Position numbers and translations under genes: made by a program. Below, piece after piece: positions 2,836-48,366 of a DNA stretch of 64,000 nucleotides; position 1 is the stretch's first letter; every line of letters starts with the position of its first letter. The notes under the pieces were generated by a model. It was not told the origin of the DNA, ran no database searches, and worked only from the letters and a program-made list of their open reading frames with translations. The DNA is from a virus (lineage: Duplodnaviria > Heunggongvirae > Uroviricota > Caudoviricetes): positions 194,831 to 258,830 of the IMG/VR virus record IMGVR_UViG_3300042890_002891; one strand, written 5' to 3'.

Positions 2836-3084
2836 CTAGGGCTCAATCCAGGTGGTGCTCACAGCATTCACTGTGGGTCGACTGTTCAAGGCAGCAATGT
2901 TCAGGGTGTGTTCTTTCAACATGTGTTCAAATCTGGCCATGTGTGCCAACTGAATGTTGTGGAGATACATGTACATCCTGGTCTCATCGGGCCAGTCACG
3001 AAATTTTTCCACCAAGTCCGGATCCACTTGAGATGCAAGTTCTCGCAGGTATTCATCTTGTGTCATCACTTGGTCCCTAGCCAT
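2836..3084 (-). CDS. hypothetical protein (82 aa)
   Basis: Protein-like composition; the competing plus ORF 2727..3080 is Cys/Ser/Trp-rich junk. Confidence 0.45.
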   Translation of the reverse strand: MARDQVMTQDEYLRELASQVDPDLVEKFRDWPDETRMYMYLHNIQLAHMARFEHMLKEHTLNIAALNSRPTVNAVSTTWIEP

Positions 3085-3207
3085 ACAAAAGGCAACAGCA
3101 TCAAAAACAAACCCACTGTGAACAACACCGCCATTAATATTTTATATTTCATTCTTCAACTCCAAAATGTATTATAACTGAATATTGATTTTTATGCAAC
3201 CTGTATT

Positions 3208-4434
3208 TCAAAGTTTTTGGGTGTAGTAGCCCCCGGTCACATGTTGCAGCATGTACATGCCTGAGGCGCCTCGATAAACAGTGGAAGACCACACACTCCA
3301 GTCTCTGACTCCGGGGTTGGCTCCCAAGGCACGTGCCATGGTCAAAAAGCTTTCTCGCAGGTACCCTAGAAATTGACCACCTTGGAGTCGGTACAAATTG
3401 CCATCTCCGTTGGCAGCATTGAAATGATAGTAACTGGACCCTTGATAGGCTAGGGCTTGAATGTCATAGCCGTTGCTGTAGCCACTGTCAATTGTGTATG
3501 CATATGAAAAGTTGTCTGCGCCGCGATTGAGCCAAACTTCTCTCCTGCCGCCTGCGCCTGCTAAAGGATTAAACACCAGCACAAAATCCATTAATCCATC
3601 TGCGTTGACATCAACACTGATGCTGTTGATCAAGTCATTGACTGCAGGATCTTGACTGGCCACACCGATTTGCGTGATTAAATTTAGGTTGGCGTCAAAA
3701 ATATTGATACTGTGACTAAATCCTGCTACTTGGTTGTTGTTGCCTTGAACCACTGCAATATGACCCGAGACTGGATCTTTGGCTACTGCACACGTTGCTG
3801 CACCATTTAATTGCGAGTTTGTTACAAAAGTAAACGCTCTATTGCCATTGTTCAAATAATATCCGTAGTTGTTTGTGGTTCCGTCCCAGACCCCGCGAAT
3901 AAGAAAATCCTTACGTCCATCGCCGTTGAGATCAGCAACACCTGCTCCATGACTATCTATGGCAGTAGCAAAAGTTTGCCGTGTAAAGATACCATTCGCA
4001 TTGCCCCAAAGCATGACACTTTGGGCAGAACAACCCGTGCAGTCATTGAATCCGGGCAGCCAAATATCCGCAAATCCATCGTTGTCCACGTCCAGTATGA
4101 ACATGCGCTGGCTACCGGAGTACTGATTAGTTCCTGCCAGCTGAACAGTTCGATCAGTTAGTGAACCGTTGGCATTTTGAATCAGCACAGCAAGGTATGA
4201 CGTGCCTGTGCCTGTCCACCCACCAACTACTACATCATCTAGTCCGTCGCCATTGAGATCACCTACAGCATAGGTTTCAACTCTGTTTCTCTCAGTAATT
4301 TGATTTAGCACTCTAGTAAATGCAACAGTCGGAGTTATCTGATTCTGATCTGAACTGGGCTGACCATTGTCTGAGCCGCCGCCGCAGGCTGTCAACACCA
4401 GGCTGATTGCTAGATATGCCCAAAGTTGGATCAT
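3208..4434 (-). CDS. secreted lipoprotein with FG-GAP/VCBS repeats (integrin-alpha-like beta-propeller)
   Basis: Signal peptide plus lipobox LTAC-GGGS. Repeated DxNGDGxxD motifs: DLNGDGLDDVVVGG, DVDNDGFADIW, DLNGDGRKDFLI, DVNADGLMDFVLV. Start at 4434 sits downstream of a consensus promoter, with RBS AAAGGA. Confidence 0.65.
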   Translation of the reverse strand: MIQLWAYLAISLVLTACGGGSDNGQPSSDQNQITPTVAFTRVLNQITERNRVETYAVGDLNGDGLDDVVVGGWTGTGTSYLAVLIQNANGSLTDRTVQLAGTNQYSGSQRMFILDVDNDGFADIWLPGFNDCTGCSAQSVMLWGNANGIFTRQTFATAIDSHGAGVADLNGDGRKDFLIRGVWDGTTNNYGYYLNNGNRAFTFVTNSQLNGAATCAVAKDPVSGHIAVVQGNNNQVAGFSHSINIFDANLNLITQIGVASQDPAVNDLINSISVDVNADGLMDFVLVFNPLAGAGGRREVWLNRGADNFSYAYTIDSGYSNGYDIQALAYQGSSYYHFNAANGDGNLYRLQGGQFLGYLRESFLTMARALGANPGVRDWSVWSSTVYRGASGMYMLQHVTGGYYTQKL

Positions 4435-4459
4435 GTTAGTCCTTTGTTGCTCTGTGTGT

Positions 4460-4488
4460 ATTATAGCACTTCGGGTAATATTGGTCAA
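4460..4488 (-). promoter_or_regulatory. consensus sigma70 promoter TTGACC-17-TATAAT (member of a 5-copy family)
   Basis: Minus strand reads GATTGACCAATATTACCCGAAGTGCTATAATACACACAG; drives the FG-GAP lipoprotein gene. Confidence 0.6.
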
Positions 4489-4554
4489 TCAAACTATCGA
4501 ATAAATGTCAAGATTGTATTTTTATGCTGGCAAAAATGCGTTACTAAATATTCT

Positions 4555-5679
4555 ATGCATTGCAAATTTCTAGACCACGGGGTTGCTATTTCTTATGACC
4601 AAGTGGTGAAACCATGTTGTGTTTGGAAATATGATTCTTCATGGACAGCACAAAATCAACTTGGTTCGGTCAATCTTGACACATGGCACCAATCTGATCA
4701 GATTATCAGAATTAAAAATCAACTGGCACAAGATTCTTGGCCCAGCGGTTGTGAGCATTGCCATTCTATAGAAAAAACAGGCAGGGGTGATAGCACTCGT
4801 CTCAACGGTGCTCGGTCCTATGCAGAATACAGCGGCAACGATATTACTTTGGAAATTCGTCCAGGGGCTGTGTGTAACTTTGCTTGTCAAACTTGTTGGC
4901 CTGAGGCCAGCACTCGAGTGGCGCAGTTTCATCATCAGGCTGGAATAATAGATATCAAAGATGTCAACAGTCAAAGCATCAGCAATTTTGATTTTTTGTT
5001 ACCGTTCGCTGATCGAATCCGTAATGTGGTATTGCTAGGCGGTGAACCGTTTTATGACAAAAATTGTTTGAAATTTTTAGACTGGGCTGCTGAACATTTG
5101 TCCGCCAACATTACCATGTTCACAAATGGCAGCATGATTCGATGGGACTGGATCAAAAACTATCAACATCCTATCACTGTGGTGTTCAGCATTGACGCTG
5201 TGGGGAGACCTGCAGAGTACATACGCTATGGTACTGAATGGGATACAGTGCATCAGAACTTTCAAGAAATCCAAAAATACTCTCATGTGGACTTGCGAGT
5301 GAACATTACCTCCTCAGCATACAATTACATTTATATAGAAGAGGTGTTAGATATGCTGCTGGCCAAATGGCCCAGTGTGGTTTCTTTTGGTGTCCCGAGC
5401 GATGCTTACTTGGGAACCCTGGTAGTGCCAGATCAATATCGAGCAGAGATTGTTGCTAGTTTAACTCGATCTATTGAAAAAATTAAATCAACTGCTATTG
5501 AAATAGGACAACAACAAAATGCGGTGAATGCACTGCAATCAATAGTCGATGCATTGGCGACCAACAACTATGATCATGTGTTGCATCAAAAGTTTAAAAA
5601 GTTTGTGGAAGACATGGACCGTGTGAAGAAAATCAACATCCTGGACTATTGCAAATTTACAGCAGATATGTTAGCTTAA
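4555..5679 (+). CDS. radical SAM enzyme
   Basis: CNFACQTCW = CxxxCxxC 4Fe-4S/SAM cluster motif. A GGEPF motif (LLGGEPFYDKNC) is present. No C-terminal Cys-rich SPASM domain seen. Start is uncertain: the ORF opens at 4426 but that would overlap the divergent promoter. Confidence 0.65.
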   Translation: MHCKFLDHGVAISYDQVVKPCCVWKYDSSWTAQNQLGSVNLDTWHQSDQIIRIKNQLAQDSWPSGCEHCHSIEKTGRGDSTRLNGARSYAEYSGNDITLEIRPGAVCNFACQTCWPEASTRVAQFHHQAGIIDIKDVNSQSISNFDFLLPFADRIRNVVLLGGEPFYDKNCLKFLDWAAEHLSANITMFTNGSMIRWDWIKNYQHPITVVFSIDAVGRPAEYIRYGTEWDTVHQNFQEIQKYSHVDLRVNITSSAYNYIYIEEVLDMLLAKWPSVVSFGVPSDAYLGTLVVPDQYRAEIVASLTRSIEKIKSTAIEIGQQQNAVNALQSIVDALATNNYDHVLHQKFKKFVEDMDRVKKINILDYCKFTADMLA

Positions 5680-6813
5680 TAACTGCTGTAGATTTCTCAT
5701 CACATTCCCAGTATTTTTTTGATTGCTCAGTGCTGAGGTCAGTCCTGGAACATTTTGTTCGATTAGTGTGCGGCTAACACTGCTGTTCATGATTTGACCT
5801 TTTGCCAGTTCTAAAGGCAAGCGCAGGCACAACTTAAACAATTCAAGATCTCTCAGAGGAGTCCAGGTCAGGGTGTTTCCAATATGCCAGTGTTGCCAAT
5901 CATTCACAACGGTATTGCACACTGACCAATTAAAATCTTGATCTGTGGCAGGTTGATAGTTACACATCTGATCAGAAAATACTTTCACATGCTTTTGTAA
6001 CTTGAAATATTCTCGATGTAAGCAATCGGGATGTTCCATTAGCAATTGCAAAACACTAGAGCCATGATGCATCAGGTACTGATTGGCAGTGACAGGGCTG
6101 CGTAGCATAAATTCGTCGCCGGGTGCACCTGATGCCAACACACACGGTTCTTGCCAGTGATGTATTTGTCGATATCCCCAATTTTTGCAAATATCAGCAT
6201 GGTTTGCCAACCAAAATGCATCATGGTCACAGTGCTCTGCCCAGACCAATTCATGCGGAATCTGATATCGGCAAAGATAACTATACACCAGTAATGTATC
6301 TACGCCACCACTTAAAAACACACGTATTGGCTCTGTTACCTGTTGCGCATACTGTTGAATTTTTTTACACAGCAAGATATCAATATCATCAACAGTTGAA
6401 TAACCAGTATCGATGCTGCCAATCACATCAAACTTGTGTTCGGTCACTGCAAGATCTGCATGTACTGTGATCAAGCTGTCAGTCCAGGCAGTGCGGTCAG
6501 TTGCAATCAAATTGTTTATGCCGGCGTCATTGATATAAATTGGGAATCCGCGATAGCGATCAGACTGAATTGTTAGTGTGTCATTTACAACAACCAGCGC
6601 ACAAAAATTGCCAGTCAGATGCGGCGTGCTCTGAAACATTATCTGACCAAGTAGCGATTCTAAAGGTCCTGCGTCTGCGTAGCCTTTGTACAAAATTTGC
6701 ACAGGACCAATAGCAAACTGTTTCCATCCGGGATCGGTACTGATTGCAAAACTACTCAGTTGCCACTGGCATGGGTAATTTTCTTGTGGCTGCTGGCTGA
6801 TATGGAAAAACAT
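5671..6813 (-). CDS. asparagine synthetase-like PP-loop amidoligase lacking the N-terminal glutaminase Cys
   Basis: SGGVDT PP-loop motif at about residue 160 of 380, as in the AsnB C-domain or lasso cyclase. The N-terminus is MFFHIS, with no Cys2. Start overlaps the clpP stop as TAATG. Confidence 0.6.
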   Translation of the reverse strand: MFFHISQQPQENYPCQWQLSSFAISTDPGWKQFAIGPVQILYKGYADAGPLESLLGQIMFQSTPHLTGNFCALVVVNDTLTIQSDRYRGFPIYINDAGINNLIATDRTAWTDSLITVHADLAVTEHKFDVIGSIDTGYSTVDDIDILLCKKIQQYAQQVTEPIRVFLSGGVDTLLVYSYLCRYQIPHELVWAEHCDHDAFWLANHADICKNWGYRQIHHWQEPCVLASGAPGDEFMLRSPVTANQYLMHHGSSVLQLLMEHPDCLHREYFKLQKHVKVFSDQMCNYQPATDQDFNWSVCNTVVNDWQHWHIGNTLTWTPLRDLELFKLCLRLPLELAKGQIMNSSVSRTLIEQNVPGLTSALSNQKNTGNVMRNLQQLLS

Positions 6814-7403
6814 TATCTAGTGGTCAGTATCTTGTCAGCAAGTCCGTAGTCTACGGCTTCTTGCGCACTCATGAAATTGTCGCGCTCCATGTCTGCTGTG
6901 AATTCTTCAAATGTTTTGCCTGCTGAGTTATGTTTGACATAGATCTCAGTCAGCACCTGTTTCATCTTGAGAATTTCTGTGACCTGGATCAGCATGTCTG
7001 TGGCCTGTCCACGTGAGCCGCCCGAAGGTTGATGAATCATGTGACGAGCGTTGGGCAAGATAAATCGCTTGCCTTTAGCACCAGAACTAGCCAGCAATGA
7101 TCCCATTGAGCAGGCCTGTCCCATCACAATGGTCTGCACATCAGGCTTGATAAACTGCAGGGTATCATAGATGGCCATGCCTGCTGTGACGCTGCCGCCG
7201 GGTGAGTTGATATACAAACTGATATCTTTGTCAGGATTCTCACTTTCAAGAAACAACATTTGTGCCACAATCAAACTGGCACTATGTTCGTCTACATCTG
7301 AGTCCAGCATGATAATGCGTTCTCGAAGCAAGCGACTGTAGATGTCGTAGCTGCGTTCGCCTTTGCTTGTGGATTCAACAACAATTGGTACTAGATTTGG
7401 CAT
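6813..7403 (-). CDS. clpP: ATP-dependent Clp protease proteolytic subunit ClpP
   Basis: 196 aa with a canonical Ser/His/Asp triad context ([23 protein letters not shown]); RBS AAAGGAATATC. Confidence 0.85.
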
Positions 7404-8380
7404 GATATTCCTTTTTGGATTTTTTGTTTCTGACTATGAACATAATCAGTGAAGTGATGTTTATTGTATAGTATTTTTTCACTAAGAGCAAGAAATTTGG
7501 CTTGCCAGTACTCAGGTGTCTGGTCACACAACACTCCAAGGAATCGGTGCATGGCCGCTGGCTCAGCAAGGTTCAAGTCGGTGATATCCGCAAAGTCTGC
7601 AACATACGGTTCAAACCCTCGATCTGTTAGCCAGCGGGTGCCGCCATCAGGATCATACACCAAAAACGGTCTACATCCTACTATGGGTTTGTAGATTTTT
7701 TCACTTACAAATCCAGTCTGATTGATATCGAAAAACGTTTCAGTCACAATGTTTACCAGGTGTCGTTGCCAATTTTGCATGTGGCCCAGACTCACTATAT
7801 CATTGGGTACGCCGTAATGTGTGGCAGCAGCGTTGGGTGCAAGATTGTCCGGCTCGCAATCAGTTGGCAAAGATCTTACTGCTGAACCAGTGCCTCCCAT
7901 GCTTACTATACCACGGTCCAACAAGTTACTGGCTTCAAGTCTTTGATACAGCTTTTGTCTATGCCAGTGTGGCTTGCGATTCAAACACATGTAGGCTGTA
8001 TCAATCAGAGACGGATCCATTAGAATATCCAATGATGGTGGATTTAAAAATTCATCCACGAACACTGCACAAAAATCCACAGCATGTGGTCCTGCATAAT
8101 ATCCCACAGTCGATATTTCACATTCAAACTCACTATACCAATCAGCAGCAGGAATAGCCGCATCTAACATGGCAATCAGCACAATACAATCAACTGGATT
8201 GTTACGCAACCATTCCAGTACTTGTTCATGATATTGTTTGGTATACCATACAGAATTGATAACAACAGTTCTAGAAGAGTCGGCAGATATGTGCGTGAGC
8301 ATGCGATCAACTATGTGTGTTTCAAACTTCTTGAGTGGAAACTGCAAGCCCCAGCCGTTGTCAAATCTTTGAATAATCAT
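7391..8380 (-). CDS. glycosyltransferase-like protein, paralog A (TEK motif, fucosyltransferase/GT10-like)
   Basis: C-terminal [17 protein letters not shown] is shared with two other genes in the window. Confidence 0.5.
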
Positions 8381-9386
8381 GGTCTAGTATATTGGTTTGA
8401 TTGTTACAAATGTCCGCAAGATGTTGCCGATTGTATTGAGCTATCTCATGTGCAAAACTTAATATTCGTTTTTGTTCTGCACGGCCGCACTCCAGCAAGG
8501 TGCGCATACTTTGTTGCATAAGTCGCCAACGATCGGCACCTTCATACAGGTCATAACTTTCATCCCAGATGCTGTGATATGTTTGGAACCCTATGCTGCG
8601 CAATCTTGCTAGATAGTAACGTGGTGCATATACCAACATGGGTTTGGCAGCCATGATAGGACGTATGGTTTTTTCAGTAGGAAAGAATGTATTTCCTAAG
8701 GTGTAAGTTTCACACACTATCTCCACAGCAAAATTGTGATAGTGCTGCAACAAACTAGTATTGGTTTCTGCTGATGATGCAGGAGTAGCAAATTGATCTC
8801 TTACTGATTTGTTGTCCACACTGGTCACAATCCGTTGATCATACCAAGCAAACATCCGGGCCTGATCATACAGTGATAACCAGTCTGATATGTTTTCTAA
8901 ATCGTGAACATCACCTATCTCTCGTTTCCAAGGAAATGGTTGTATGTGATTCATCATGCTGGCAAAAAGACTAGTGCTATGTGCTTGATACAGAATAGCA
9001 GCTCTGCTGAGTGTAATTCTTCCAACAAACAATCCAAAAGGTTGTTGATATTCTAGTTGTTGTTCTAGTGTGGGTTCTGTGTGTTGCCAATAATCCTGAA
9101 CCATGAAGAAAAAATGACTTATCTTGCTGCATTTCACACGCTGGTATGGCACAAATTCTACAGGATTGCTCCATCCTATTAACTGCACAGTATCAGGAGT
9201 TTGTTTCCTAGCCATGAGCCAGGCGTTGATTGATTTGGTTATGCCCAGTGCCGACAAGCTAGGACCCTCTCCACGTAGGTCCAAGACCAGTGGTTCTCCA
9301 GGTGGGTGCTGATTAAGTTGTTGTTGAAATTGAGTAGGATTATTCCAGCAATCGCCGCTGAATTCTATTGCTATAGGTTCTGTCAT
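8361..9386 (-). CDS. glycosyltransferase-like protein, paralog B
   Basis: TEKTIRPIMAAKPMLVYAPRYYLARLRSIGFQTYHSIWDESYD aligns with paralogs A and C. Confidence 0.5.
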   Translation of the reverse strand: MTEPIAIEFSGDCWNNPTQFQQQLNQHPPGEPLVLDLRGEGPSLSALGITKSINAWLMARKQTPDTVQLIGWSNPVEFVPYQRVKCSKISHFFFMVQDYWQHTEPTLEQQLEYQQPFGLFVGRITLSRAAILYQAHSTSLFASMMNHIQPFPWKREIGDVHDLENISDWLSLYDQARMFAWYDQRIVTSVDNKSVRDQFATPASSAETNTSLLQHYHNFAVEIVCETYTLGNTFFPTEKTIRPIMAAKPMLVYAPRYYLARLRSIGFQTYHSIWDESYDLYEGADRWRLMQQSMRTLLECGRAEQKRILSFAHEIAQYNRQHLADICNNQTNILDHDYSKI

Positions 9387-9416
9387 TCCAATACTTATGG
9401 TGTCACTAAATACACC

Positions 9417-10961
9417 ATGAGAGATTTAATCAACGTACTTGACAGCATAATAACTGAGGTGACCATCAGTAAACCCAAATATGGACCTGGCACTCAATTT
9501 TCTGTTTCCACAGGGTCAGAAGCTGGAAAAAAGTTACTGACATTGTTGCAGCAACAAGGATTTGATGCTACTCCGCCATTGACCAGGCAAGACGACACAG
9601 AATTGAGCGAAAAAGATATCTTAAATCTCCCCACAGTTACATATGGAAAAGGCGGCGACGGTTATATTTTTTCCAATAATGCTGGACAGTCTGTTTTGAT
9701 TGTTGGCAGTTCTAGTACCATTGGGGCAGCGTTTAATGTGTATACTGGAGCCACTGCCGACGACGATGTTGGGAAAATTGCCAATCGCGGCGAAACAGCC
9801 GAAGGTATTCTGGGCGCTGCTATGTTTGCTAAATTCACCAAACGTGAATCTGACGAAGATATCGGCACAGTGACCGCTCAGGACATCGGCAATGTGCTTG
9901 ACAGTTTAAAGCAAACCGGTGAGGATCAATATCAAGTGGAAGTGGAAGATTTTGATAATGAACATGCGGATGTGATTTCGTTTGTGCTGAGACTTAAATC
10001 CGGGCCGTATCAGGATCTCATGGATCCTGCCAAGCGACCGCTGTTGGCCAGTGAATTCTCCAGTGCCGCTGCTTATGTCAACAGTTCGGACGCTGAACGA
10101 TACAGCAAGTATTTTTATATCAATGGCAGGTCAGATCAGATCGTGATCATGGCCGATGGCGTCACAGGTGAAACAGAACAAAAGACCGATGTGTGGGTGT
10201 TTGTCACTGATGAAAATGGCCAGCCACGTAAACTTAGACTCAATACCAGTCTCAAGGTAGGTGGTATTAAACAGTTTGGACAAGTGGGTGGCGACAGTGC
10301 AGAAACCCAACAGATCTTGTGGAATTATTTTGGTGTTGATGCAAGTTCTGCGTTGGCCAAATTTACCAAGGCAATGAAATCCAATTCACCAACAGCAACA
10401 AGAGATGCATTCAAACAAATATATCAATATGCTGCTACCGAACTAGACAACAAATTGAAAAACGCCAGACCTGAAGATGAAGCCAACATAATTGATGCCA
10501 TTGCCACTGGTATCACACACTTTGCTACACTGGGCGATCCCAATGTTGAACTGGTGGACTTCAGCGATGGTGGATTCAAGATTTTGAGATTCAACAAGCT
10601 GGTTGAAAAATTAAAGAATACAGATCTTGAAGCCACTTACGTTGATAAAAAAACTTGGCCAGAAGTGGTCATTCATGAACGCGATAACCCTAATAATAAA
10701 CTGCTGACCATCAGGATGAAAGTAGAGAACAAACCCAAGGGCGGTATCTATGTTCGCACTTACATTGAAAAGGGTCCGCTGTTGGAAAAACTCACCGAAT
10801 ACCGAAAAGCCAGTTGGGACAATGCTCCAGCTGCTACTGGTGCCGAAGATCTAGATGCAGTTACCGGCACACCAAGACTATCGGGTCCTGGTGCACGAGC
10901 AGCAAAGACAAATCGCGAACCCAGAATGGATCGTGCCACCCTAGGGCGCGAGCGTCGTTAA
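9417..10961 (+). CDS. acidic 514 aa hypothetical protein ending in LGRERR
   Basis: Start set at the first ATG after the divergent gene start (the ORF track opens at 9306). The C-terminal ...ATLGRERR is shared with 48717..49601. Confidence 0.55.
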   Translation: MRDLINVLDSIITEVTISKPKYGPGTQFSVSTGSEAGKKLLTLLQQQGFDATPPLTRQDDTELSEKDILNLPTVTYGKGGDGYIFSNNAGQSVLIVGSSSTIGAAFNVYTGATADDDVGKIANRGETAEGILGAAMFAKFTKRESDEDIGTVTAQDIGNVLDSLKQTGEDQYQVEVEDFDNEHADVISFVLRLKSGPYQDLMDPAKRPLLASEFSSAAAYVNSSDAERYSKYFYINGRSDQIVIMADGVTGETEQKTDVWVFVTDENGQPRKLRLNTSLKVGGIKQFGQVGGDSAETQQILWNYFGVDASSALAKFTKAMKSNSPTATRDAFKQIYQYAATELDNKLKNARPEDEANIIDAIATGITHFATLGDPNVELVDFSDGGFKILRFNKLVEKLKNTDLEATYVDKKTWPEVVIHERDNPNNKLLTIRMKVENKPKGGIYVRTYIEKGPLLEKLTEYRKASWDNAPAATGAEDLDAVTGTPRLSGPGARAAKTNREPRMDRATLGRERR

Positions 10962-11530
10962 CGTCCCAGTGTGGATATTGCATCGCAGATGTGCAGTTCC
11001 AGAGCCTGAGTAGCATCAAGCCAAACATCATGTGGTGGCAACAGCTTGGCCCGAACAGTTTCATCATCAAGCCCGGTACAGTCCCGGTAGTGCTGTATCA
11101 TGCGCTTTTGTGTAAGCTCAAATTCACGCATGGTAGCAAACAATTCATGCACCTTGCCATCGCTGCCCCAGCTGAACTGGTGACTCAGGATACTGGTGTT
11201 GGGAGTAAGGATTCTACGTCCCGGGGAACCTGCTAGAAATATCAAGAGTCCTGCACTGGCAATCTGTCCCAGTCCCACTGTTTTGACCGCAATAGCACTG
11301 CTGCGCATGACATCAATTAGTGCAAAGGCAGCACTCATGTCTCCACCTTCTGAGCAGATCATCAGCAGGAGTTCTTTGCGCTTTTTCTTGACCACATAGT
11401 TTTCATGCAGAATCCACTCTATCACTGGTTTGATACTGTCATGGTCTATTTCACCCATGAGTACCAGCATGCCTGAGTCGGCCAGCCGTTGGGTGTGTGA
11501 TTGATCTAGATTTTCAGTTTCTGTGGCCAT
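10958..11530 (-). CDS. second ClpP-like protease subunit (ClpP2)
   Basis: 190 aa; GQIASAG (Ser), ILSHQFS (His) and PPHDVWLDA (Asp) align with the clpP triad; divergent from ClpP1. Confidence 0.65.
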   Translation of the reverse strand: MATETENLDQSHTQRLADSGMLVLMGEIDHDSIKPVIEWILHENYVVKKKRKELLLMICSEGGDMSAAFALIDVMRSSAIAVKTVGLGQIASAGLLIFLAGSPGRRILTPNTSILSHQFSWGSDGKVHELFATMREFELTQKRMIQHYRDCTGLDDETVRAKLLPPHDVWLDATQALELHICDAISTLGR

Positions 11531-18554: not shown

Positions 18555-19550
18555 TTAGTGTAGTGCCAACCGTTTCCAGTCTGCACGAATCTTGTTCTTC
18601 ACTGCTAAAGGCAATGCCACATAGTCTAGGTCATCTGCTGCTCGATCTCCACTGGCAAATGCCCAGTCAAAGAAAGCAATAGCAGTTTTGGATTTAGCAG
18701 CATCTTCGGGTTTCAAATACACTAGGATAAATGTAGCACCTGAGATGGGCCATGCTTCTTTGCCTGCTTGATTGGTTAGAATCTGAAAGTATGTTCGGTT
18801 CCAGTCAGCATTTGCGGCAGCTGCCTTGAATGATTCTTCTGTGGGTGCCACCCAGGTGCCAGCAGCGTTCTGTACATTGACCCAGTTCATCTTGGTTTGT
18901 TTTACATAAGCAAATTCAACATAGCCCAGTGTTCCTGGAAGTTGTCTAACCATGGCAGCAACACCTTCGTTGCCTTTGCCGCCTGCTCCAACTTTCCAGT
19001 TGACTGCTGTGCCTTCACCAATGGTGTCTTTGAATTCTTTAGATACCTTGCTGAGATAGTTGGTCCAGATAAATGTAGTTCCTGATCCATCTGCTCTGCG
19101 AACCACAGTGATTGCTTGGTCAGGTAATGCTAATGAGGGGTTTAGTGCCCGGATAGCAGCGTCATCCCAGCGAGTAATTTTGCCTAGAAAGATATCAGCA
19201 AGCAATGTGCCTGTGAGTTTCATTTGTCCAGGTTCGATGCCCTTGACGTTGATCACAGGAACCACGCCGCCAATTGCTGTGGGGAACTGGAATAGTCCCA
19301 GATCTTTTAGTCGATCATCTGTGAGTGGCATATCACTTGCACCAAACGTGACTGTCTTGGCTTCAATCTGTTTGATACCTGCACCTGAGCCAACTGACTG
19401 ATAGTTGATTTTGATGTTGGTCACGCGGTTGTAGTCACTAGCCCACTTTGAATACAACGGAGCCGGAAATGTTGCACCGGCTCCTGTAACTTCTTGTGCT
19501 GTTGCAGAAACTGCAACAACTGATAATAGAATAGCTAATAATTTTTTCAT
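18555..19550 (-). CDS. pstS: phosphate ABC transporter substrate-binding protein PstS
   Basis: Signal peptide. GAGATFPAPLY, SGTTF and the overall sequence match proteobacterial PstS (about 330 aa). RBS AAGGAGTCAAG. Confidence 0.9.
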   Translation of the reverse strand: MKKLLAILLSVVAVSATAQEVTGAGATFPAPLYSKWASDYNRVTNIKINYQSVGSGAGIKQIEAKTVTFGASDMPLTDDRLKDLGLFQFPTAIGGVVPVINVKGIEPGQMKLTGTLLADIFLGKITRWDDAAIRALNPSLALPDQAITVVRRADGSGTTFIWTNYLSKVSKEFKDTIGEGTAVNWKVGAGGKGNEGVAAMVRQLPGTLGYVEFAYVKQTKMNWVNVQNAAGTWVAPTEESFKAAAANADWNRTYFQILTNQAGKEAWPISGATFILVYLKPEDAAKSKTAIAFFDWAFASGDRAADDLDYVALPLAVKNKIRADWKRLALH

Positions 19551-19606: not shown

Positions 19607-19898
19607 CAATTTGCAGAATCATGCGAACCAGTCCCACCATGTCTATGCTCACCAACAGGATGTAGTTAGCCAGCATACCAAAAGATTTCCTAGTATAACT
19701 AGCCCAAGCATACATGGCACAACCAGTGATCCAGATAGGATACATGTACAACAACGGAGGGTTTGGGACGGTGATCGCCATTGTGATCGAGCAGCCAATA
19801 GACACTGCCCAAGCCACAATCTCAACTGCAAAACGCACAGGGTAAGTTTTATAGTCATCTCGTATCCAAGAAAAAATGTTGGGTAGTATATCGTTCAT
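19602..19898 (-). CDS. integral membrane protein (98 aa, about 3 TM)
   Basis: Hydrophobic helices; ATGA overlap with the upstream gene. Confidence 0.5.
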   Translation of the reverse strand: MNDILPNIFSWIRDDYKTYPVRFAVEIVAWAVSIGCSITMAITVPNPPLLYMYPIWITGCAMYAWASYTRKSFGMLANYILLVSIDMVGLVRMILQIV

Positions 19899-20932
19899 GT
19901 CTGGGCCAGTCGCTGATTGTACACCTGCTCACTGGCAAGATTCTTGCCCTTGGCCTCACACTGAATATCCCACTGATCACCAAATGTCAGGGCCCATTCA
20001 TTGCAGGCAGTGTTCCACATCATATCGCTGTGTGCCCGGAGCTTCTGCTTTTTAAAACCTGCTGCAAGTAGTCCAGCAAGATCGGGTCGAACTCGGTGAT
20101 CGTGACCCACCAAAATATCTTCACGGCTAACACTGTAGTGAAGAGCAGGACGAACACCACGCCAAGACTCAACAACCCGTTGCGCACGAGGGTCCGCAGG
20201 CGTGATGTATTCTCCGGAGTTGATCCAGTGATGGTGTATGTCCAGCACAAGAGCCACATGCTCAGCCACAAGTAAAGTAGAATCGATGCCATTTGTCATT
20301 TCGTCATTTTCGATGGAGATAAGATTCCTGGCCTCGGAACTGAGGCGACCCAAGGTCTTTAGGAATTTAGTGACACCACCTTTGCCACTTAAATGTACAT
20401 TTATCTTGAATCCCGAGTCATGCCAACTTTTTCCATAGCCCATCCAGCGGGCCATGTCTGCATGATACTCAAATTCCAGGATACTGCGTTCCACAATCAC
20501 GTCATGCTCGCTGGCCAGCACACAAAACTGTCCGGGATGGAAGCTGAGTCGCACACCCAGTCTGCGGGCAGTTTCGCCCACAGGAGCAAAGATCCGTTCA
20601 CAGTGATCTTGTATCTCTTTGCGCTGCCACCAGTCGATCCATGAAGGTTCAGTATAGCCTTGCAGCATTTCTGAACCCAGCCGTACCATTCTACGACCTT
20701 CAGGCAGGGTAGCCACTCGTTCAATCATGCGAACTGCTGCTGTGGCATTGTGATTCATTATGTCCCATTGCCGCTGTTCAGCTTCATCCTTGTGCTCTCG
20801 AAGCCAGCGCATGGTGGTTGATCGGCCGTTTAGTTCACGGTCCACAGCATTGACTTTCATGCCGCCGCATTCGGACGGATCATTGAGCCATTTGCAACAA
20901 AAACCAATTTGGGGTATAGTCATATCAATCAC
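19895..20932 (-). CDS. TIM-barrel sugar-phosphate isomerase/endonuclease superfamily protein, possibly a UvdE-like UV damage endonuclease
   Basis: 345 aa; ISIENDE and HH motifs typical of the xylose-isomerase-like/UVDE fold; the assignment is tentative. Confidence 0.4.
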   Translation of the reverse strand: MIDMTIPQIGFCCKWLNDPSECGGMKVNAVDRELNGRSTTMRWLREHKDEAEQRQWDIMNHNATAAVRMIERVATLPEGRRMVRLGSEMLQGYTEPSWIDWWQRKEIQDHCERIFAPVGETARRLGVRLSFHPGQFCVLASEHDVIVERSILEFEYHADMARWMGYGKSWHDSGFKINVHLSGKGGVTKFLKTLGRLSSEARNLISIENDEMTNGIDSTLLVAEHVALVLDIHHHWINSGEYITPADPRAQRVVESWRGVRPALHYSVSREDILVGHDHRVRPDLAGLLAAGFKKQKLRAHSDMMWNTACNEWALTFGDQWDIQCEAKGKNLASEQVYNQRLAQT

Positions 20933-22399: not shown

Positions 22400-22917
22400 G
22401 CGGTCCCGGTTAATTGTAGAGTATAGCGATCAGTTTTGCCAACGTTGGCGGCCAGGTGTAAGAAATCATCGCGCCAGCTGACCCAATCACCAGCACGCCA
22501 ATTGGTAATAGGAGCACCGTTCATTTCCAGGTAATGCCCACTGTCCCAGTCTTCTAAGAACACAATGGTACGAACCACTGACTGTGTTGATTCAAGCCCG
22601 TGTATGAGTTTGAATCTGTTGTAGCTGTCTCTGTGTGCTGGTAATACTGTACCTGGCGACATACAATACACACTCCATCCTAGCTTGGTCCAAGGAAACT
22701 TGTCACAGATAGATTGCATCCAGACAGGCTCAGGGAAACGCATGTCATACATGTCCCCGGTAAATTTACTTTGCGTATATCCCAGCTGACGCCATTCTGC
22801 TAGACTTTCTCGATCATTGAACTGTTCGTTTATATAGACAAGCTCACGATGTTGTAGACCCCAGGTAACATCTATATGCCCCTGGACCCAGATGTTATTT
22901 TGGTCGAGTGTTGCCAT
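22396..22917 (-). CDS. cupin / Fe(II) oxygenase-like protein
   Basis: PAHRDSY (HxD) ... FLHLAANVG (distal His) arrangement. Confidence 0.4.
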   Translation of the reverse strand: MATLDQNNIWVQGHIDVTWGLQHRELVYINEQFNDRESLAEWRQLGYTQSKFTGDMYDMRFPEPVWMQSICDKFPWTKLGWSVYCMSPGTVLPAHRDSYNRFKLIHGLESTQSVVRTIVFLEDWDSGHYLEMNGAPITNWRAGDWVSWRDDFLHLAANVGKTDRYTLQLTGTA

Positions 22918-24133
22918 AGTGAACGACTTCGTACTCCGCAGTTGAAGTCAGTTTGCGCCAAGGATCAACAATAATGCTGCCCGGTTTGATAGCACAGTAG
23001 GGTTGGGTATCCAATTGGTCGCCAGTGTATTCATACGTGATTTTGCGATTGTGTGCCCAAAGAAACACCGCAGGGTAATCCACACTGTCAACCACGTGGG
23101 TTCGATCATCTGCAAGAGGATCAATATAGACCACTTGGTGCCCTGCTTGTTCTAGATAAAATCCAACCAGGGTACTGTAACTGCCAATGCAATAAGGAAC
23201 GTCTGGCTTGTATGCTTTGCCATGAATCACCACAGGCAGACTGTGCAATGCAGCTTGATCAATCAGGAACTGAGCCAAGTTTTTGGCTTGTATTTCTCTA
23301 GCATGCATCACAGTATCAAACAAATCGTAGCCAATGTTGTATTCTTCTGCTAACCAACGCAGAGCAATGTTATCACGTGGATGACAAGCACCTGCATCGC
23401 CCATGCCCGCTGTCATGTACTTGGGTCCCATGATACGCATGGTACTACGAGCCAAGGCATCTGTGACCACATCAACATTGATGTGTCCAATACGTAGAGC
23501 AAAGTCCTGAATCATGTTGACCAGACCAACTTTGGCACTGATGAATGTGTTGTAGAAAATTTTAATGGCTTCGCATTCGTCCCAGGTGCCAATTTCGTAG
23601 CGTGGATTGTTTGCCATAATAGTCTTGTACAGATCAATCAGTTCGCCTGCTAGAGCATTGGGGTTGCCATCTTCGGTGCCAATCATGACCATTTCTGGGT
23701 TGACCATGTCCCATTTGACCGATCCCATGGCAATTAGATAAGGGTTATACAGGAACTGATGCTGTGGATCCAGCAGTGGGAAAAACTTGCGGCGTGTGGT
23801 CCCGGGCAATACTGTACTGATCAACACAATCTTTTTTGGACTAGTTGCATATTTGTTTATGTTCTTGATAGCGTCAATCACAGCATCGTGACCAAAGTCT
23901 TTGGGTTTCATATGGCTGCTTGGAACAGATCCATCGTAACCTTCCTGGTGTGGAGTTGGCACAGCAATAAAGATCCACTCGCTTTGATTCACAAGTTCGT
24001 CTATGTCACAAACTTTCACTGAGTCACTGATTCGCGGGTAAATATCATATCCCCGTACTGTGTGCTGTTCAGCAAAAACTTCTGCACAGTCCAGGCCCAA
24101 TTTTCCAATTCCAATAAATCCAATATTCTTCAT
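22895..24133 (-). CDS. nucleotide-sugar 6-dehydrogenase (UDP-glucose/GDP-mannose dehydrogenase family)
   Basis: N-terminal MKNIGFIGIGKLG Rossmann motif and the catalytic-Cys motif GACHPRD. Confidence 0.65.
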   Translation of the reverse strand: MKNIGFIGIGKLGLDCAEVFAEQHTVRGYDIYPRISDSVKVCDIDELVNQSEWIFIAVPTPHQEGYDGSVPSSHMKPKDFGHDAVIDAIKNINKYATSPKKIVLISTVLPGTTRRKFFPLLDPQHQFLYNPYLIAMGSVKWDMVNPEMVMIGTEDGNPNALAGELIDLYKTIMANNPRYEIGTWDECEAIKIFYNTFISAKVGLVNMIQDFALRIGHINVDVVTDALARSTMRIMGPKYMTAGMGDAGACHPRDNIALRWLAEEYNIGYDLFDTVMHAREIQAKNLAQFLIDQAALHSLPVVIHGKAYKPDVPYCIGSYSTLVGFYLEQAGHQVVYIDPLADDRTHVVDSVDYPAVFLWAHNRKITYEYTGDQLDTQPYCAIKPGSIIVDPWRKLTSTAEYEVVHYGNTRPK

Positions 24134-27737: not shown

Positions 27738-28949
27738 TTAGCTGTTTACAACCCGGAGTTCCTCGGGTTCTGCCACCTGATCCGTGTCAATTGACAGCAC
27801 AGCAATGCCTTGCTGGCGGTATTGTGCAAGATGAAACATGTGCGGCAACAGCACACGTTCTAGTTCGCTGTGCAGACCACGTGCACCAGTTTGATTGACC
27901 AAGGTGCGCTCCGCAATCTCATCCAGTGCCGCCACAGTAAACGTCAAGTCCACGCCATCTTCAGAAAATAGCCAACGATACTGATCCACATAGTTATTCT
28001 TGATCTCTGTGAGAATTCTAATCAGGTCCGCTTTGCTGAGTTGTTTCAAACTGACCCAGTTGGGAAAACGTCCAACAAATTCCGGAATCATGCCAAACTT
28101 CACCAGGTCATCTGGTGTGGTCATGTCCAGATCGGTATCAATAGATGTTTTTGCAACCTTGGCGTTAAAGCCAATGGAGGTTCCTTGCACACGATTTTTC
28201 ACTATGGTATCTAGCCCCACAAATGCGCCACCAGCAATAAACAAAATGTTGCGAGTGTCAATTTCAATCATGTCACCACCAGGATGCTTTCTGCCACCAC
28301 CTGCTGCTGGAATACGACACACAGTGCCTTCTACCATTTTTAACAGGGCCTGTTGTACACCTTCGCCTGACACATCTCTAGTGATCGACGAGCTTTCGCC
28401 CTTGCGAGCAATTTTGTCAATCTCATCCACAAACACAATACCCTGCTGTGTCTTGGCCACATCGTTGCCTGATGCAGCATACAATCTAGTGATTAGACTT
28501 TCCACATCGTCACCCACATATCCTGCTTCAGTGATACTTGTGGCATCAGCAATGGCAAATGGCACATCAAGATAACGTGCCACTGACTTGGCCAACAAAG
28601 TTTTGCCTGAGCCAGTGGGTCCTAACATCAAGATGTTGGCTTTGTCCATTTCTGGATCAGTTGTGGTCTTGCTGATGCGTTTGTAATGATTCACAATGGC
28701 CACACTGATCATGATCTTGGCAGCGTCCTGACCAATCACATACTGATCCAGATAGTTCTTCAGGATCATTGGATCTAGTTTGGCTGATGGTGGTTCGGGT
28801 GGCACAACTGGTTCGTCAGTTGACAACAGTCCCTGACAAAAATCCACGCACTCGTTGCAGATGCCTGCATACTCGCCAACAATAAGTTTACGCACGTCAT
28901 CTTTATTTTTGCCACAGAAGCTGCATGAGGAATGGGTTTCTTTGATCAT
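27738..28949 (-). CDS. clpX: ATP-dependent Clp protease ATP-binding subunit ClpX
   Basis: N-terminal C4 zinc finger CSFCGK...CNECVDFC, Walker [12 protein letters not shown]+ motifs. Start placed after the upstream stop (TAAAATAATG). Confidence 0.9.
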
Positions 28950-28953
28950 TATT

Positions 28954-30366
28954 TTATTCTGGAAGTTGTTGTATGCGTTGTTCGATTTGATCACGTTCAC
29001 TGTCACTCAAAAGCTCAGGATCATACAATCCTTTTTCAATTTGAACAATCAAGTGATCTATGTATGCTATGTCGTAAGTATACTGGTCTTTTATAGAATT
29101 GTCAACTTTGATCCAGCCGGAGCCGTTGAATTTATACAACACATTGGGAATCGTTGTGGTCAACACATAGCTGTCACCTTTTACAGCAGTGTCGGGCAGG
29201 TGTGTTCCAAATCCAGATGTAGGTTCATGTGATGGCAAAAACTTTAGCCAAGGCAGTTCTTCTATCTGCCCAGAGTCAAATAATTTTCGTTGATGTTTGA
29301 GTGTGTCTGTGGGATTCTCGGCCTTCCATTGTGTCATGGCTGCTTTGAGTTCAGGACTTTCTTCGTCGGAGTCATCATCGTCGGGCAGTGTTGTTTCTGC
29401 TGCTTGTGGCACTGGCTGTGGGTCGGGCTCAAACATCCAACCGGCTGGATGCGGGTTCTCAGGAAATAGTTCTTGCCGGCTCACAAGTTCGCCAGTGGGC
29501 AAGTCTTGTTGTGCTCTAGCACGTAACTGTTCCAGTACTTCTGGATCAATGGGACCATCATCAGGTTCATATGCTGGTGGCTCAGGTTCAAGCACTCGAC
29601 TGGTGCGACCTTCACGTGCCCACTTGAGACTTTCTGTAGATGCCAACAGCATCATGATAGCTAGTGGATCAAATACACAAACCAACAACATGATCACCCA
29701 GCGTACTGCACGTTCCAGAACATTGGCATCAGGATTGTCACCGTAGATCAAGGCTGCAATGTACTTGATTGGACCTACTTCAGCTTCGATCTTGCGAAAT
29801 TCTGCTCGGAGTGGTGCTGCTTCTTCGTTCAGCTTGGCCACGGTTTTCTGCTCAGTGTCAATTTCGGCTATGAGACGAGCACGTTCTTTATTTTGAGATC
29901 TGCGGATCTGAACAGCTTTCTCAGCACCTTTCTCATCGGCACTGCGACCCATGACCTGGTCCACAGCTTCATCCATCTGTTTAAGTGCCCGACGGTTGGC
30001 GTCAATGTTGTCTTTGGATGTTCGAATTTTTTCATCAAAGATCAAAACCTTGGCCTGACTGTCGCCACTCACAAGACTCTGATCACTGTGTGCTTTTGAC
30101 AAGAAACCAAAGATGCCCATGCTGGTGATCAACATTAGCATGATCACAGCAGACACCAGGTATATTTTCATCAACCATCTGGCTCGTGGCCAGTACTCGT
30201 GCAGCCATATGGTCACAACCACCTTGGCCAATTCCAGGATGGATCCCATGATCATGATGGGTATCACTGCGGCTGCAAATATAGCTGCCAGGCCGGCAAT
30301 GCTGTAGTAGGCAGCAATAACGCTGAGACTCAGAGCCACGGCTAGAGTTATAAGACTAAGAAACAT
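28954..30366 (-). CDS. multi-pass membrane protein with a coiled-coil and an acidic Pro-rich C-terminal domain (470 aa)
   Basis: 4 N-terminal TM helices, a central coiled coil, one more TM, then [12 protein letters not shown]...DDDDSDEE. Confidence 0.5.
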
Positions 30367-47613: not shown

Positions 47614-47934
47614 TTAAACTCTAAAACTTTCTCCACAACCACAGCGGTCGCGTTCGTTGGGATTTGAAAATTCAAATCCTTCATTGAGACCTTGTCTTGT
47701 GTAGTCTACTTCAAGTCCTTGAAGATAGGCACAACTTTTGGGATCAACAAACAATTTGCAGTTGGCACAGTCAATGCAGATATCTTCAGGTTGTGCTGTA
47801 TCTACATATTCCAACACATAAGCAAGTCCTGAGCAACCTGTGGTTCTTACACCAACACGAATACCAATACCATGGCCGCGACGTTGAATGGTTTGAGTTA
47901 TTTTTCTAGCAGCATCATCAGTTAAGGAGATCAT
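47614..47934 (-). CDS. iscA: Fe-S cluster A-type carrier IscA/ErpA/HesB
   Basis: C-terminal CGCGESF and an upstream Cys; 106 aa. Confidence 0.8.
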   Translation of the reverse strand: MISLTDDAARKITQTIQRRGHGIGIRVGVRTTGCSGLAYVLEYVDTAQPEDICIDCANCKLFVDPKSCAYLQGLEVDYTRQGLNEGFEFSNPNERDRCGCGESFRV

Positions 47935-48310: not shown

Positions 48311-48366
48311 ACAGGTTCCTTTTGTTGAGTATACTACCAACAGGCTGACTAGTCAACCAGTTTGAA

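Follow-up and report, generated by a model that had tools for sequence, protein, structure and literature searches.

A virus-only, glutaminase-dead relative of asparagine synthetase linked to ClpP and a radical-SAM enzyme in an uncultured giant phage

Genes and features at the locus

The window, a 64-kb stretch of DNA, is part of the ~350-kb genome of an uncultured giant phage and covers a replication and nucleotide-metabolism region (RNR, ligase, DnaB, primase). Four of its genes were singled out in an earlier, sequence-only reading, and inspection of the ORFs confirmed each at its coordinates (Table 1): a clpP gene, a gene for a relative of asparagine synthetase (AsnB) that we designate X, a radical-SAM gene and a gene for an FG-GAP repeat lipoprotein. 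The X and radical-SAM genes are convergent and share 9 nt at their 3′ ends, and the divergent radical-SAM and FG-GAP genes are separated by a 120-bp spacer. The clpP stop and the X start overlap by a single base (TAATG, in AGA TAATG TTT TTC), as previously described. ClpP1 is probably co-transcribed, and probably also translationally coupled, with X. The window additionally encodes an IscU-like Fe–S scaffold, which could support the radical-SAM enzyme.

Table 1. Features of the X locus and of the associated Clp genes in the window
Feature	Position	Strand	Remarks
X, 380-aa AsnB-fold, glutaminase-dead PP-loop amidoligase	5671..6813	-	module's constant core
Radical-SAM enzyme, NF033640	4555..5679	+	optional, tightly linked partner of X
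ClpP1, canonical ClpP proteolytic subunit	6813..7403	-	PF00574 1e-80; PRK00277 309.5 bits (cutoff 249)
FG-GAP repeat lipoprotein	3208..4434	-	PF13517 8e-19; LTAC lipobox
Putative sigma-70-like promoter for the FG-GAP gene	4460..4488	-	TTGACC, 17 nt, TG-TATAAT; 11/12 matches
ClpP2, divergent second ClpP subunit	10958..11530	-	PF00574 1.4e-27
ClpX unfoldase, phage-encoded	27738..29006	-	AAA_2 1.5e-30; zf-C4_ClpX 9e-13

ClpP1 carries the motifs CSMG, MIHQP and ERDNF, with the catalytic Ser, His and Asp in their usual places, and scores 297 on TIGR00493, slightly under the cutoff of 308.6. The phage-encoded ClpX is the likely partner of both ClpP1 and ClpP2. The FG-GAP protein scores 68.4 bits on PF13517 (cutoff 26.9). 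Its ORF extends to a TTG at 4488, and translation from the ATG at 4434 yields the signal peptide MIQLWAYLAISLVLTAC, which contains an L-T-A-C lipobox (LVLTAC). The near-consensus promoter claimed ahead of this gene is present as a putative site with an extended -10, a single consensus match upstream of the ATG; promoter-like matches taken together are no commoner in the region than in shuffled sequence. An FG-GAP homologue recurs near X in just one other locus (L006). The lipoprotein is thus an incidental neighbour outside the conserved module, to which it had earlier been assigned.

X founds a virus-only family with the AsnB fold

X is a previously undescribed relative of asparagine synthetase that is incapable of using glutamine. 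It combines an N-terminal Ntn-type domain with a C-terminal PP-loop ATP-pyrophosphatase domain, the architecture of the AsnB superfamily at the level of the fold. Sequence similarity is much harder to find: no Pfam or NCBIfam profile matches X at E<=0.01, PF00733, the profile suggested earlier for its detection, misses it, and searching PDB sequences with the profile of its family recovered no AsnB relative. Residue equivalences, given here in the mature numbering of E. coli AsnB, are based on motif-level alignment together with a weak hhalign match to that protein (probability 14%). The PP-loop motif SGGxD[ST] is found as S168-G-G-V-D-T173, corresponding to S234GGLDS of AsnB; across 27 sequences, G169, G170 and D172 never vary, and conservation of S168 is 90% or higher. 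By motif-level alignment, the S228-G-[AT]-P-G-D233-E234 motif and K366 would match the D351 and K449 motifs of AsnB: S228GAPGDE aligns with S346GEGSDE (D233 and E234 being invariant) and the invariant K366, in NQKNTG, with K449 in RQKEQF. In the same way, TPLRD aligns with VPFLD.

The glutaminase residues, by contrast with the PP-loop, are gone. AsnB Cys1 is replaced by Phe2 in the invariant N-terminus M-F-F of X, and N74-G75-E76 reads K43-G44-Y45. This bears out the earlier assignment of X as a glutaminase-less, AsnB-like PP-loop amidoligase and rules out a functional glutamine-dependent AsnB, which would need the Cys nucleophile and the glutaminase residues R49, N74-G75-E76 and D98. Where AsnB has its aspartate-binding residues, the X family has an invariant motif of its own, NDWQHWH, and the substrate of X is therefore not aspartate.

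The closest relatives without glutaminase activity are beta-lactam synthetase (beta-LS; 1jgt) and the carbapenam synthetase CarA (1q15), at 11–15% identity. Compared to these, X is ~110–120 residues shorter, as its N-domain lacks ~50 residues and its PP-loop domain is without the ~40-residue helical segment that follows the second strand. X further differs from both in having the NDWQHWH substrate-binding region and in its occurrence on viral or metagenomic contigs only. A beta-lactam or carbapenam synthetase was rejected, because the position of the catalytic Tyr348 (of a dyad with Glu) is Ala or Thr by motif alignment. AsnB-like proteins of phages and giant viruses in BFVD, such as the asparagine synthase of Achromobacter phage Motura, have the AsnB fold in common with X (Foldseek E 1e-10 to 1e-12); they are ~12% identical to X, longer (426–846 aa), annotated as glutamine-hydrolysing, and belong to a different family. 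None of 185,579 species genomes contains a member of the X family, which was found solely on viral or metagenomic contigs no longer than 350 kb. X is the founding member of a virus-only family, a new family of a known kind of enzyme.

The radical-SAM partner

The radical-SAM assignment of the convergent gene was upheld. Its product carries CNFACQTC (CxxxCxxC) and LLGGEPF and scores 197.2 bits on NCBIfam NF033640 (cutoff 170), covering positions 12–394 of the 398-position model; on Pfam Radical_SAM it scores 27.3, just below the cutoff of 29.5. NF033640 describes N_Twi_rSAM, a twitch domain-containing radical SAM protein, a family name to which the library attaches no function. Invariant residues are C107xxxC111xxC114 and C21, C22, C66 and C69, the latter four in a Cys-rich, twitch-like N-terminal domain. 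A SPASM domain (TIGR04085/PF13186), for which a profile search had been suggested earlier, gave no match in Pfam and NCBIfam searches, and the extra Cys cluster lies at the N-terminus instead. The last 120 residues form helices and include a single near-invariant Cys (C366). A divergent version of the partner, type B, is only 22% identical to the window protein, yet scores 184 bits on NF033640. On other viral contigs, NF033640 radical-SAM genes occur in tandem arrays interspersed with a small PP-loop protein; these arrayed paralogues score 228–406 bits and, like the window protein and type B, all belong to NF033640.

Linkage of X, the radical-SAM gene and clpP

Of 30 distinct X loci, 20 have the radical-SAM gene as a neighbour, and conversely X is the neighbour at all 27 testable loci of close radical-SAM homologues. 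The two genes can be convergent with overlapping tails, X can precede the radical-SAM gene on the same strand, or the radical-SAM gene can lie upstream; adjacency is kept through all three arrangements and even where type B takes the place of the partner. We know of no earlier description of such an obligatory pairing of an NF033640 sub-lineage with an AsnB-fold enzyme. The remaining 10 of the 30 loci have X without a radical-SAM neighbour, and in at least one of them (L010, a 251-kb contig) a pattern scan gave no close radical-SAM match. X can therefore work by itself or with a different partner.

The link between ClpP and X is likewise real. At 17 of 24 distinct loci the gene immediately upstream of X encodes ClpP, and in 15 of these 17 the genes overlap by one base (TAATG or TGATG), so the overlap seen in the window is a conserved trait. 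The conserved block reads ClpP2, p551 (opposite strand), ClpP1, X; the ClpP1-X pair is retained without ClpP2 and p551 in three loci (L019, L022, L028). L025 aside, six distinct X loci lack the radical-SAM gene and have an upstream region that could be judged, and all six keep ClpP. Conversely, in L111-L113 an NF033640 radical-SAM gene lies immediately upstream of a ClpP1-like gene, with X absent.

As X nearly always adjoins the radical-SAM enzyme, a ClpP gene or both, this looks like a real modification pathway. The trio of X, radical-SAM enzyme and ClpP is not a fixed unit: ClpP is missing next to X at 7 of 24 and the radical-SAM gene at 10 of 30 distinct loci.

Comparison with known systems

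The resemblance to lasso-peptide biosynthesis lies in the cyclase (McjC-type). This AsnB-like enzyme activates a side-chain carboxylate by adenylation and turns it into an amide, its glutaminase domain is dead, and its gene lies next to that of a protease. The X locus differs in having no precursor gene, transglutaminase-type leader protease or RRE, its protease being a canonical ClpP, and X shows no sequence-level similarity to PF00733. A lasso-peptide cluster was rejected, as the genes overlap or are separated by the 120-bp spacer, no small ORF is shared across the 30 loci, and the neighbours lack the corresponding Pfam matches.

QueE and QueC are likewise such a pair, frequent in phages: one is a radical-SAM enzyme, the other an ATP-dependent PP-loop enzyme that uses ammonia to turn a carboxylate into an amide. 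QueC is a single-domain protein with a Zn site, whereas X has the two-domain AsnB fold, and the radical-SAM enzyme has an N-terminal Cys-rich domain in addition to what is found in QueE. It scores 19 bits on TIGR03963 (QueE; cutoff 260), with QueE models at E 8e-4, X matches no QueC model, and the window showed no further deazaguanine genes. The pair is thus not QueE/QueC, as the sequence-only reading had held, and its view that the module is unassigned also stands.

Possible functions of the module

From these folds, motifs, family memberships and gene linkages we infer an adenylation chemistry, a substrate common to both enzymes, and the class of that substrate. The reading that we favor, with somewhat better than even confidence, is that X forms amides at the expense of ATP, optionally together with a radical tailoring partner, on a substrate that is probably not a nucleic acid. 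The functional unit would be X, usually accompanied by the radical-SAM enzyme. Its Ntn-like domain would have lost the glutaminase machinery, and its PP-loop domain would still be equipped to bind ATP and Mg2+ and to activate a substrate carboxylate as the acyl-adenylate. Attack by an amine, which could be free ammonia or belong to another molecule or to the same substrate, would then give an amide or a lactam. The NF033640 enzyme may perform radical tailoring of the substrate of X or of a pathway intermediate, a step presumably accessory to the core reaction, as the radical-SAM gene always travels with X and X also occurs without it. Both proteins are acidic (pI 5.2–6.5 for X, 5.3–6.9 for the radical-SAM enzyme) and a precursor-peptide gene is absent; the substrate is therefore most likely not DNA or RNA but a low-molecular-weight metabolite, for instance a carboxylate linked to an amino acid, a sugar acid or a nucleotide, or else the carboxylate of a protein. 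ClpP1 would be an ordinary ClpP working with the phage ClpX and ClpP2. Three observations sit less comfortably with this reading: a third of the X loci lack the radical-SAM neighbour, the X family has Ala or Thr (SG[AT]PGDEF, by motif alignment) where AsnB has Glu348 and beta-LS the Tyr348 involved in nucleophile activation, and the conserved ClpP1-X overlap may hint at a role at the protein level.

Such a role is the basis of an alternative that we consider unlikely. Here, the target of X would be a protein carboxylate, at a C-terminus or on an Asp or Glu side chain, and its amidation or ligation would be tied to ClpXP proteolysis: degrons would be created, masked or edited, or ClpP or a partner modified, and the coupled message would fix the ClpP1:X proportion. 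The frequent upstream ClpP with its one-base overlap, the pair that outlasts ClpP2 and p551, the retention of ClpP in radical-SAM-less loci, and the NF033640–ClpP1-like neighbours lacking X all point this way. Moreover, lasso cyclases and thiopeptide C-terminal amidotransferases are AsnB-fold enzymes that act on peptide carboxylates. However, seven of the 24 loci lack an adjacent ClpP, overlaps of one base are frequent where phage genes are densely packed, and ClpP1 itself is ordinary, also in its catalytic motifs. Most ClpP-linked loci also have a long syntenic block in common, so part of the ClpP-X signal reflects shared ancestry.

A glycan-related role is similarly doubtful. By analogy with the AsnB-type WbpS, X could form uronamides, and the radical-SAM enzyme could modify sugars like BlsE, together tailoring a sugar acid or nucleotide-sugar. 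The margin of BlsE over other radical-SAM enzymes is small, though, and sugar genes are not consistently adjacent: a dehydrogenase lies 16 kb off, epimerase genes are limited to one sub-lineage, and the GT-like character of two neighbours (329 and 341 aa) is putative. This role is a sub-case of the favored amide-forming reading and does not contradict it.

It is quite unlikely that the module hypermodifies a nucleobase or nucleotide of phage DNA or tRNA. The model here would be the radical-SAM enzyme QueE with its PP-loop partner QueC, which takes a carboxylate through an amide to a nitrile. The pairing logic is the same, the small PP-loop protein of the NF033640 arrays has a C-terminal CxxCxxC and is encoded beside ThyX and DNA polymerase genes, the window is rich in replication and nucleotide-metabolism genes, and the radical-SAM enzyme gives weak, partial matches to the nucleotide-acting viperin, MoaA and QueE. 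Against this, both proteins fall far under the QueC/QueE thresholds and are acidic. The scanned ORFs include no DpdA/TGT, FolE, QueD, dUMP/dCMP hydroxymethylase, 5-HMUDK or aGPT-Pplase, which counts as weak evidence because they cover 64 kb of the ~350-kb genome. Amidation of a nucleotide or a sugar, as proposed earlier, is possible, with slight evidence in its favor.

Even less probable is the other earlier proposal, RiPP-like maturation, in which a ribosomal precursor peptide would be cyclized or amidated by X, cross-linked or epimerized by the radical-SAM enzyme, and freed of its leader by ClpP. It draws on the intramolecular amide formers beta-LS and CarA among the closest folds to X, the AsnB-like architecture that lasso cyclases and X share, the maturases among the fold neighbours of the radical-SAM enzyme (SkfB, ChlB, SuiB, CteB-type enzymes, PqqE) and the adjoining protease gene. 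The overlapping genes leave no room for a precursor gene, the sole spacer being the 120-bp promoter region, and no small ORF beside X is shared across the 30 loci. RRE, PqqD-like and SPASM domains were not found in Pfam and NCBIfam searches, and some X loci lack either the radical-SAM gene or ClpP. ClpP1, a canonical and processive ClpP encoded along with ClpX and a second ClpP, is no leader peptidase.

A last speculation, which we regard as a long shot, is that X, with or without its radical-SAM partner, is a phage device controlling Clp proteolysis. ClpX recognition of ssrA-type tags requires their free C-terminal carboxylate, so in one version X would rewrite degrons by amidating or ligating protein carboxylates. 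In another, X would make a lactam-type small molecule that hits host ClpP, with the co-translated ClpP1 as a matched or insensitive protease. Either version, if true, would extend the AsnB fold to a new class of reaction and be a new viral route to reprogram host protein turnover.

Gene layout of the module

The radical-SAM gene and the gene of protein X, a 380-aa AsnB-like PP-loop protein, lie between a gene for an FG-GAP protein and the clpP gene encoding ClpP1. On the ORF map, the positions of all four genes agree with those of the sequence-only reading, and TAATG, in which the stop codon of clpP runs into the start codon of X, was found again in the sequence itself (context ...AGA TAATG TTT TTC). 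X converges with the radical-SAM gene, their 3′ ends having 9 nt in common, and a 120-bp spacer separates the divergent radical-SAM and FG-GAP genes. The FG-GAP ORF (PF13517, 8e-19) is open as far as a TTG at 4488; translation from the ATG at 4434 gives a signal peptide, MIQLWAYLAISLVLTAC..., whose lipobox is L-T-A-C. A TTGACC-17-TG-TATAAT site in the spacer (11/12 matches) is directed at this gene. Since promoter-like sites across the region are no more frequent than in shuffled sequence, it counts as one good match and not as statistical evidence. The lipoprotein had earlier been described as a neighbour of the enzyme genes. Elsewhere it recurs near X only in L006 (L-numbers denote loci on other viral contigs that carry relatives of X or of the radical-SAM enzyme), and it is judged incidental to the module.

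Coordinates of the module, its neighbours and further genes of the window, with one gene from another locus
Feature	Position	Strand	Remarks
FG-GAP gene	3208..4434	-	ORF map
Radical-SAM gene	4555..5679	+	ORF map
X, 380 aa	5671..6813	-	ORF map
clpP (ClpP1)	6813..7403	-	ORF map
329-aa gene	7391-8380	-	no family assignment; overlaps the 341-aa gene
341-aa gene	8361-9386	-	no family assignment
514-aa protein	9417-10961	+	phrog_3560; between the two clpP genes, opposite strand
ClpP2	10958-11530	-	second, divergent ClpP
PstS-like phosphate-binding protein	18555-19550
UvdE	19895-20932
UDP-glucose/GDP-mannose dehydrogenase-family protein	22895-24133
ClpX	27738-29006	-	with zinc finger
Gram-negative porin	37319-38200
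Pectate-lyase-like protein	45277-46878
IscU/NifU_N-type Fe-S scaffold	47918-48340	-	PF01592, 6.9e-54
GGACT-like gene	L026:5991-6476		PF06094

Identity and predicted activity of X

Neither its single sequence nor its family profile gives X a match in Pfam, NCBIfam, PHROGs, PADLOC or PDB, also with phmmer, and PF00733, the profile suggested for it in the sequence-only reading, does not detect it. Fold comparison alone succeeded in identifying it, and the AlphaFold model, built from 27 homologues, is confident (pLDDT 89.4, pTM 0.88). The hhalign alignment with Escherichia coli AsnB is weak (probability 14%), yet its register is right, pairing GNFC with GMFAF, DRYRGFPIY with RDHLGIIPLY and FLSGGVDT with LLSGGLDS.

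Residue equivalences between the two proteins are predicted from motif anchors and follow mature E. coli AsnB numbering. S234GGLDS of AsnB corresponds to S168GGVDT of X (conserved in the X family), S346GEGSDE352 to S228GAPGDE234 (D233 and E234 invariant), VPFLD401 to TPLRD318 (P319 and D322 invariant), and K449 in RQKEQF to the invariant K366 in NQKNTG. With these motifs retained, the ATP/Mg2+ adenylation apparatus of X appears intact. In contrast, other AsnB features are each replaced: Cys1 by Phe2 within an invariant M-F-F N-terminus, N74-G75-E76 by K43-G44-Y45, Glu348 (Tyr348 in beta-lactam synthetase) by Ala or Thr, and the Asp-binding D384/R387 stretch by an invariant NDWQHWH motif. The N-domain is moreover shorter by ~50 residues. 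Because these residues are lost or changed, X is predicted to be no asparagine synthetase and to be unable to use glutamine, in keeping with the glutaminase-less architecture recognized earlier. Most plausibly, X adenylates a carboxylate other than that of AsnB, forming an amide or a lactam.

A family found in viruses

A search of 5.8 billion clustered proteins gave 889 relatives of X at E<=1e-3 (about 900 clusters at 90% identity), all unnamed and from metagenomic contigs of up to 351 kb. When 1.8 billion representatives were searched exhaustively with an HMM, 374 related clusters at 50% identity emerged, the best 150 of which are mostly 350-410 aa long. IMG/VR contains 31 X loci, whereas none turned up in 185,579 species genomes scanned by a pattern combined with tblastn. 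Nor did cultured-phage records yield a relative of X, at either the DNA or the protein level; in 50,697 such records, neither a nucleotide search with window positions 3000-9500 nor tblastn with X produced a match. As far as found, the family is restricted to viruses, on contigs of giant-phage size, and the phage of the window comes from a lineage without cultured members, whose contigs reach about 350 kb.

The radical-SAM partner

The radical-SAM protein carries the motifs CNFACQTC and LLGGEPF, which bears out its earlier assignment from CxxxCxxC and GGEP, and belongs to NF033640 (NCBIfam, "twitch domain-containing radical SAM protein"), with 197.2 bits (cutoff 170) and a match to almost the whole model. 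Seven cysteines are invariant in its alignments: C21, C22, C66 and C69 in an N-terminal domain of ~95 residues, and C107, C111 and C114 in the cluster motif. The SPASM domain suggested as a check is missing from the protein, whose C-terminal 120 residues are helical. Models of QueE, NrdG, MoaA and viperin give weak, partial matches far under their cutoffs, consistent with the earlier exclusion of QueE, and fold comparison places BlsE on top. Cultured phages hold distant relatives only (KVP40-like Vibrio phages and Ralstonia phage RsoM2USA), in uninformative neighbourhoods, and the 185,579 species genomes only remote 520-aa relatives with a different architecture.

An NF033640 gene adjoins X for 20 of 30 distinct X proteins (from 39 loci), and X adjoins the close homologues of the window's radical-SAM gene (>=42% identity, sequence available on the relevant side) in 27/27 loci. 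The two genes may converge with their ends overlapping, which is the arrangement of the window; X may lie upstream on the same strand (L060, L064, L065, L067-L070); or the partner may be a type B radical-SAM gene, found downstream of X in L006 and L017 and upstream in L023. With only 22% identity, type B still belongs to NF033640, at 184 bits. Because adjacency outlasts both rearrangement and deep divergence, there is good evidence for functional coupling. As the radical-SAM gene always accompanies X, and X does not always accompany the radical-SAM gene, X forms the core, to which the radical-SAM enzyme adds an accessory step. We favour, with moderate confidence, a pathway in which X would use ATP, but no glutamine, to form an amide or a lactam, with the radical-SAM enzyme as an optional tailoring partner, on a substrate that is probably not a nucleic acid.

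The link to ClpP

ClpP1 is a canonical ClpP with intact Ser, His and Asp motifs (PF00574, 1e-80; PRK00277, 309.5 bits versus a cutoff of 249), its TIGR00493 score of 297 falling just below the cutoff of 308.6. Together with ClpP2 and ClpX it makes up a complete phage-encoded ClpXP1P2 set. Of the 24 distinct loci with enough upstream sequence, 17 have a ClpP1-type gene directly before X on its strand, with a one-base overlap (TAATG or TGATG) in 15 of these 17 and a 2-nt gap in the other 2. Distinct loci lacking the radical-SAM gene, with enough upstream sequence and L025 excluded, keep ClpP in 6/6 cases; loci lacking ClpP keep the radical-SAM gene in 6/7, and L025 is the sole locus without both.

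The main rival to an amide- or lactam-forming pathway is a protein-level role of X tied to ClpXP. The link is too conserved to dismiss, the ClpP-X pair being kept in two or more contexts that are otherwise unlike (ClpP2 and p551, the opposite-strand gene of the conserved block ClpP2 - p551 - ClpP1 - X, are missing from L019, L022 and L028). It is, however, partly shared synteny within one phage lineage, with no evident mechanism, and we hold this role to be unlikely. In a different phage lineage (L111:5881-7799, L112, L113), a distant NF033640 gene (228 bits) is directly followed by a ClpP1-like gene (1e-69 to 1e-72), without X.

Other neighbours and radical-SAM arrays

Most loci keep the 514-aa protein, of phrog_3560 (a family with no assigned function), in its place between the clpP genes; among cultured phages, the closest relatives are from Synechococcus phage ACG-2014f (31% identity). 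Only in the window, L006 and L035 do the 329-aa and 341-aa genes separate ClpP1 from p551, and relatives of the 341-aa protein occur a few kb from X in L022, L028, L034, L063, L066, L073 and L074. A glycosyltransferase identity for the two, considered for a likeness in C-terminal motifs, was set aside, since Pfam, PDB and homologue annotations gave nothing.

At about ten loci, a GGACT/AIG2-like gamma-glutamyl(amine) cyclotransferase (PF06094, 3.8e-12) is encoded <= ~2 kb from the X/radical-SAM pair (L014, L015, L018, L021, L025, L026, L031-L033, L049-L055, L058, L059). None occurs in the window; the enzyme may be a third one of the pathway. In one sub-lineage (L026, 2490-3681; L031; L033), cytidylyltransferase-like and NAD-dependent sugar epimerase/dehydratase genes precede X, replacing ClpP. 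Such neighbours, the BlsE fold match, and the UDP-glucose dehydrogenase-family and GT2 genes of the window would suit tailoring of a glycan or sugar acid; no supporting point is consistent across loci, however, and this too seems improbable.

On other viral contigs, NF033640 paralogues stand in tandem, 2-7 to an array (up to 406 bits; L075, L081, L084, L089, L091, L093-L098, L105, L108, L115, L122; for example L081:1691-10773). Between the paralogues lie genes for a PP-loop protein of ~285 aa (SGGADS, C-terminal CGHCWWC), a Cys-rich protein of ~150 aa and a second type of radical-SAM protein. The arrays are often adjoined by ThyX and DNA polymerase genes, and lack X. Membership of the array PP-loop protein in the X family was rejected: hhalign aligns the PP-loop alone, and with only this part in common the two are separate families. 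A pairing of N-twitch radical-SAM enzyme and PP-loop ATPase does recur.

Genomic context and remaining readings

The window has phage character (RNR, DNA ligase, DnaB-like helicase, primase, UvdE, ClpX, a porin, a PstS-like protein, IscU, HSP20 and many small ORFs). Its auxiliary genes, for the PstS-like protein, UvdE, the UDP-glucose/GDP-mannose dehydrogenase-family protein, the porin and the pectate-lyase-like protein, are typical of an aquatic giant phage with a Gram-negative host; HSP20, Band_7 and GT2 matches occur besides among the ORFs scanned. The radical-SAM enzyme might be served by the phage IscU. The 64-kb window contains neither tRNAs nor Rfam families.

Modification of DNA or tRNA would fit the analogy with QueE/QueC and the replication-region context. 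Companion genes, however, were not seen among the ORFs scanned, and X and the radical-SAM enzyme are acidic (pI 5.2-6.9 across both families), which leaves this role quite improbable. RiPP-like peptide maturation, proposed from sequence, is very doubtful: there is no precursor gene, since the genes overlap or leave only a promoter spacer and the search for a precursor peptide gave no conserved small ORF; RRE, SPASM domain and dedicated leader peptidase are all absent; and ClpP1 is canonical and accompanied by phage ClpX and ClpP2.

Implications

Enzymes of the asparagine-synthetase fold are known to make beta-lactam rings, lasso peptides and uronamides. The enzyme kinds of X and its radical-SAM partner are known. 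Absent from the libraries and literature searched are the X family itself, its confinement to viruses, the altered pocket, the fixed partnership with NF033640 and the coupling to phage ClpXP. No relevant account of this gene combination was found in the literature; a paper on thymidine hypermodification mentions unassigned amidoligases, the X family not among them. X founds a large family that current family libraries fail to recognise, extends the asparagine-synthetase fold, fitted with a new substrate pocket, to phages, and is the first consistent enzymatic partner of NF033640, an uncharacterised radical-SAM family. The radical-SAM/PP-loop arrays suggest a wider viral pathway, and the coupling of X to phage ClpXP might indicate a novel form of host takeover. 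The value of the finding hinges on the substrate of X; the product of its pathway, if found, would likely be new chemistry.
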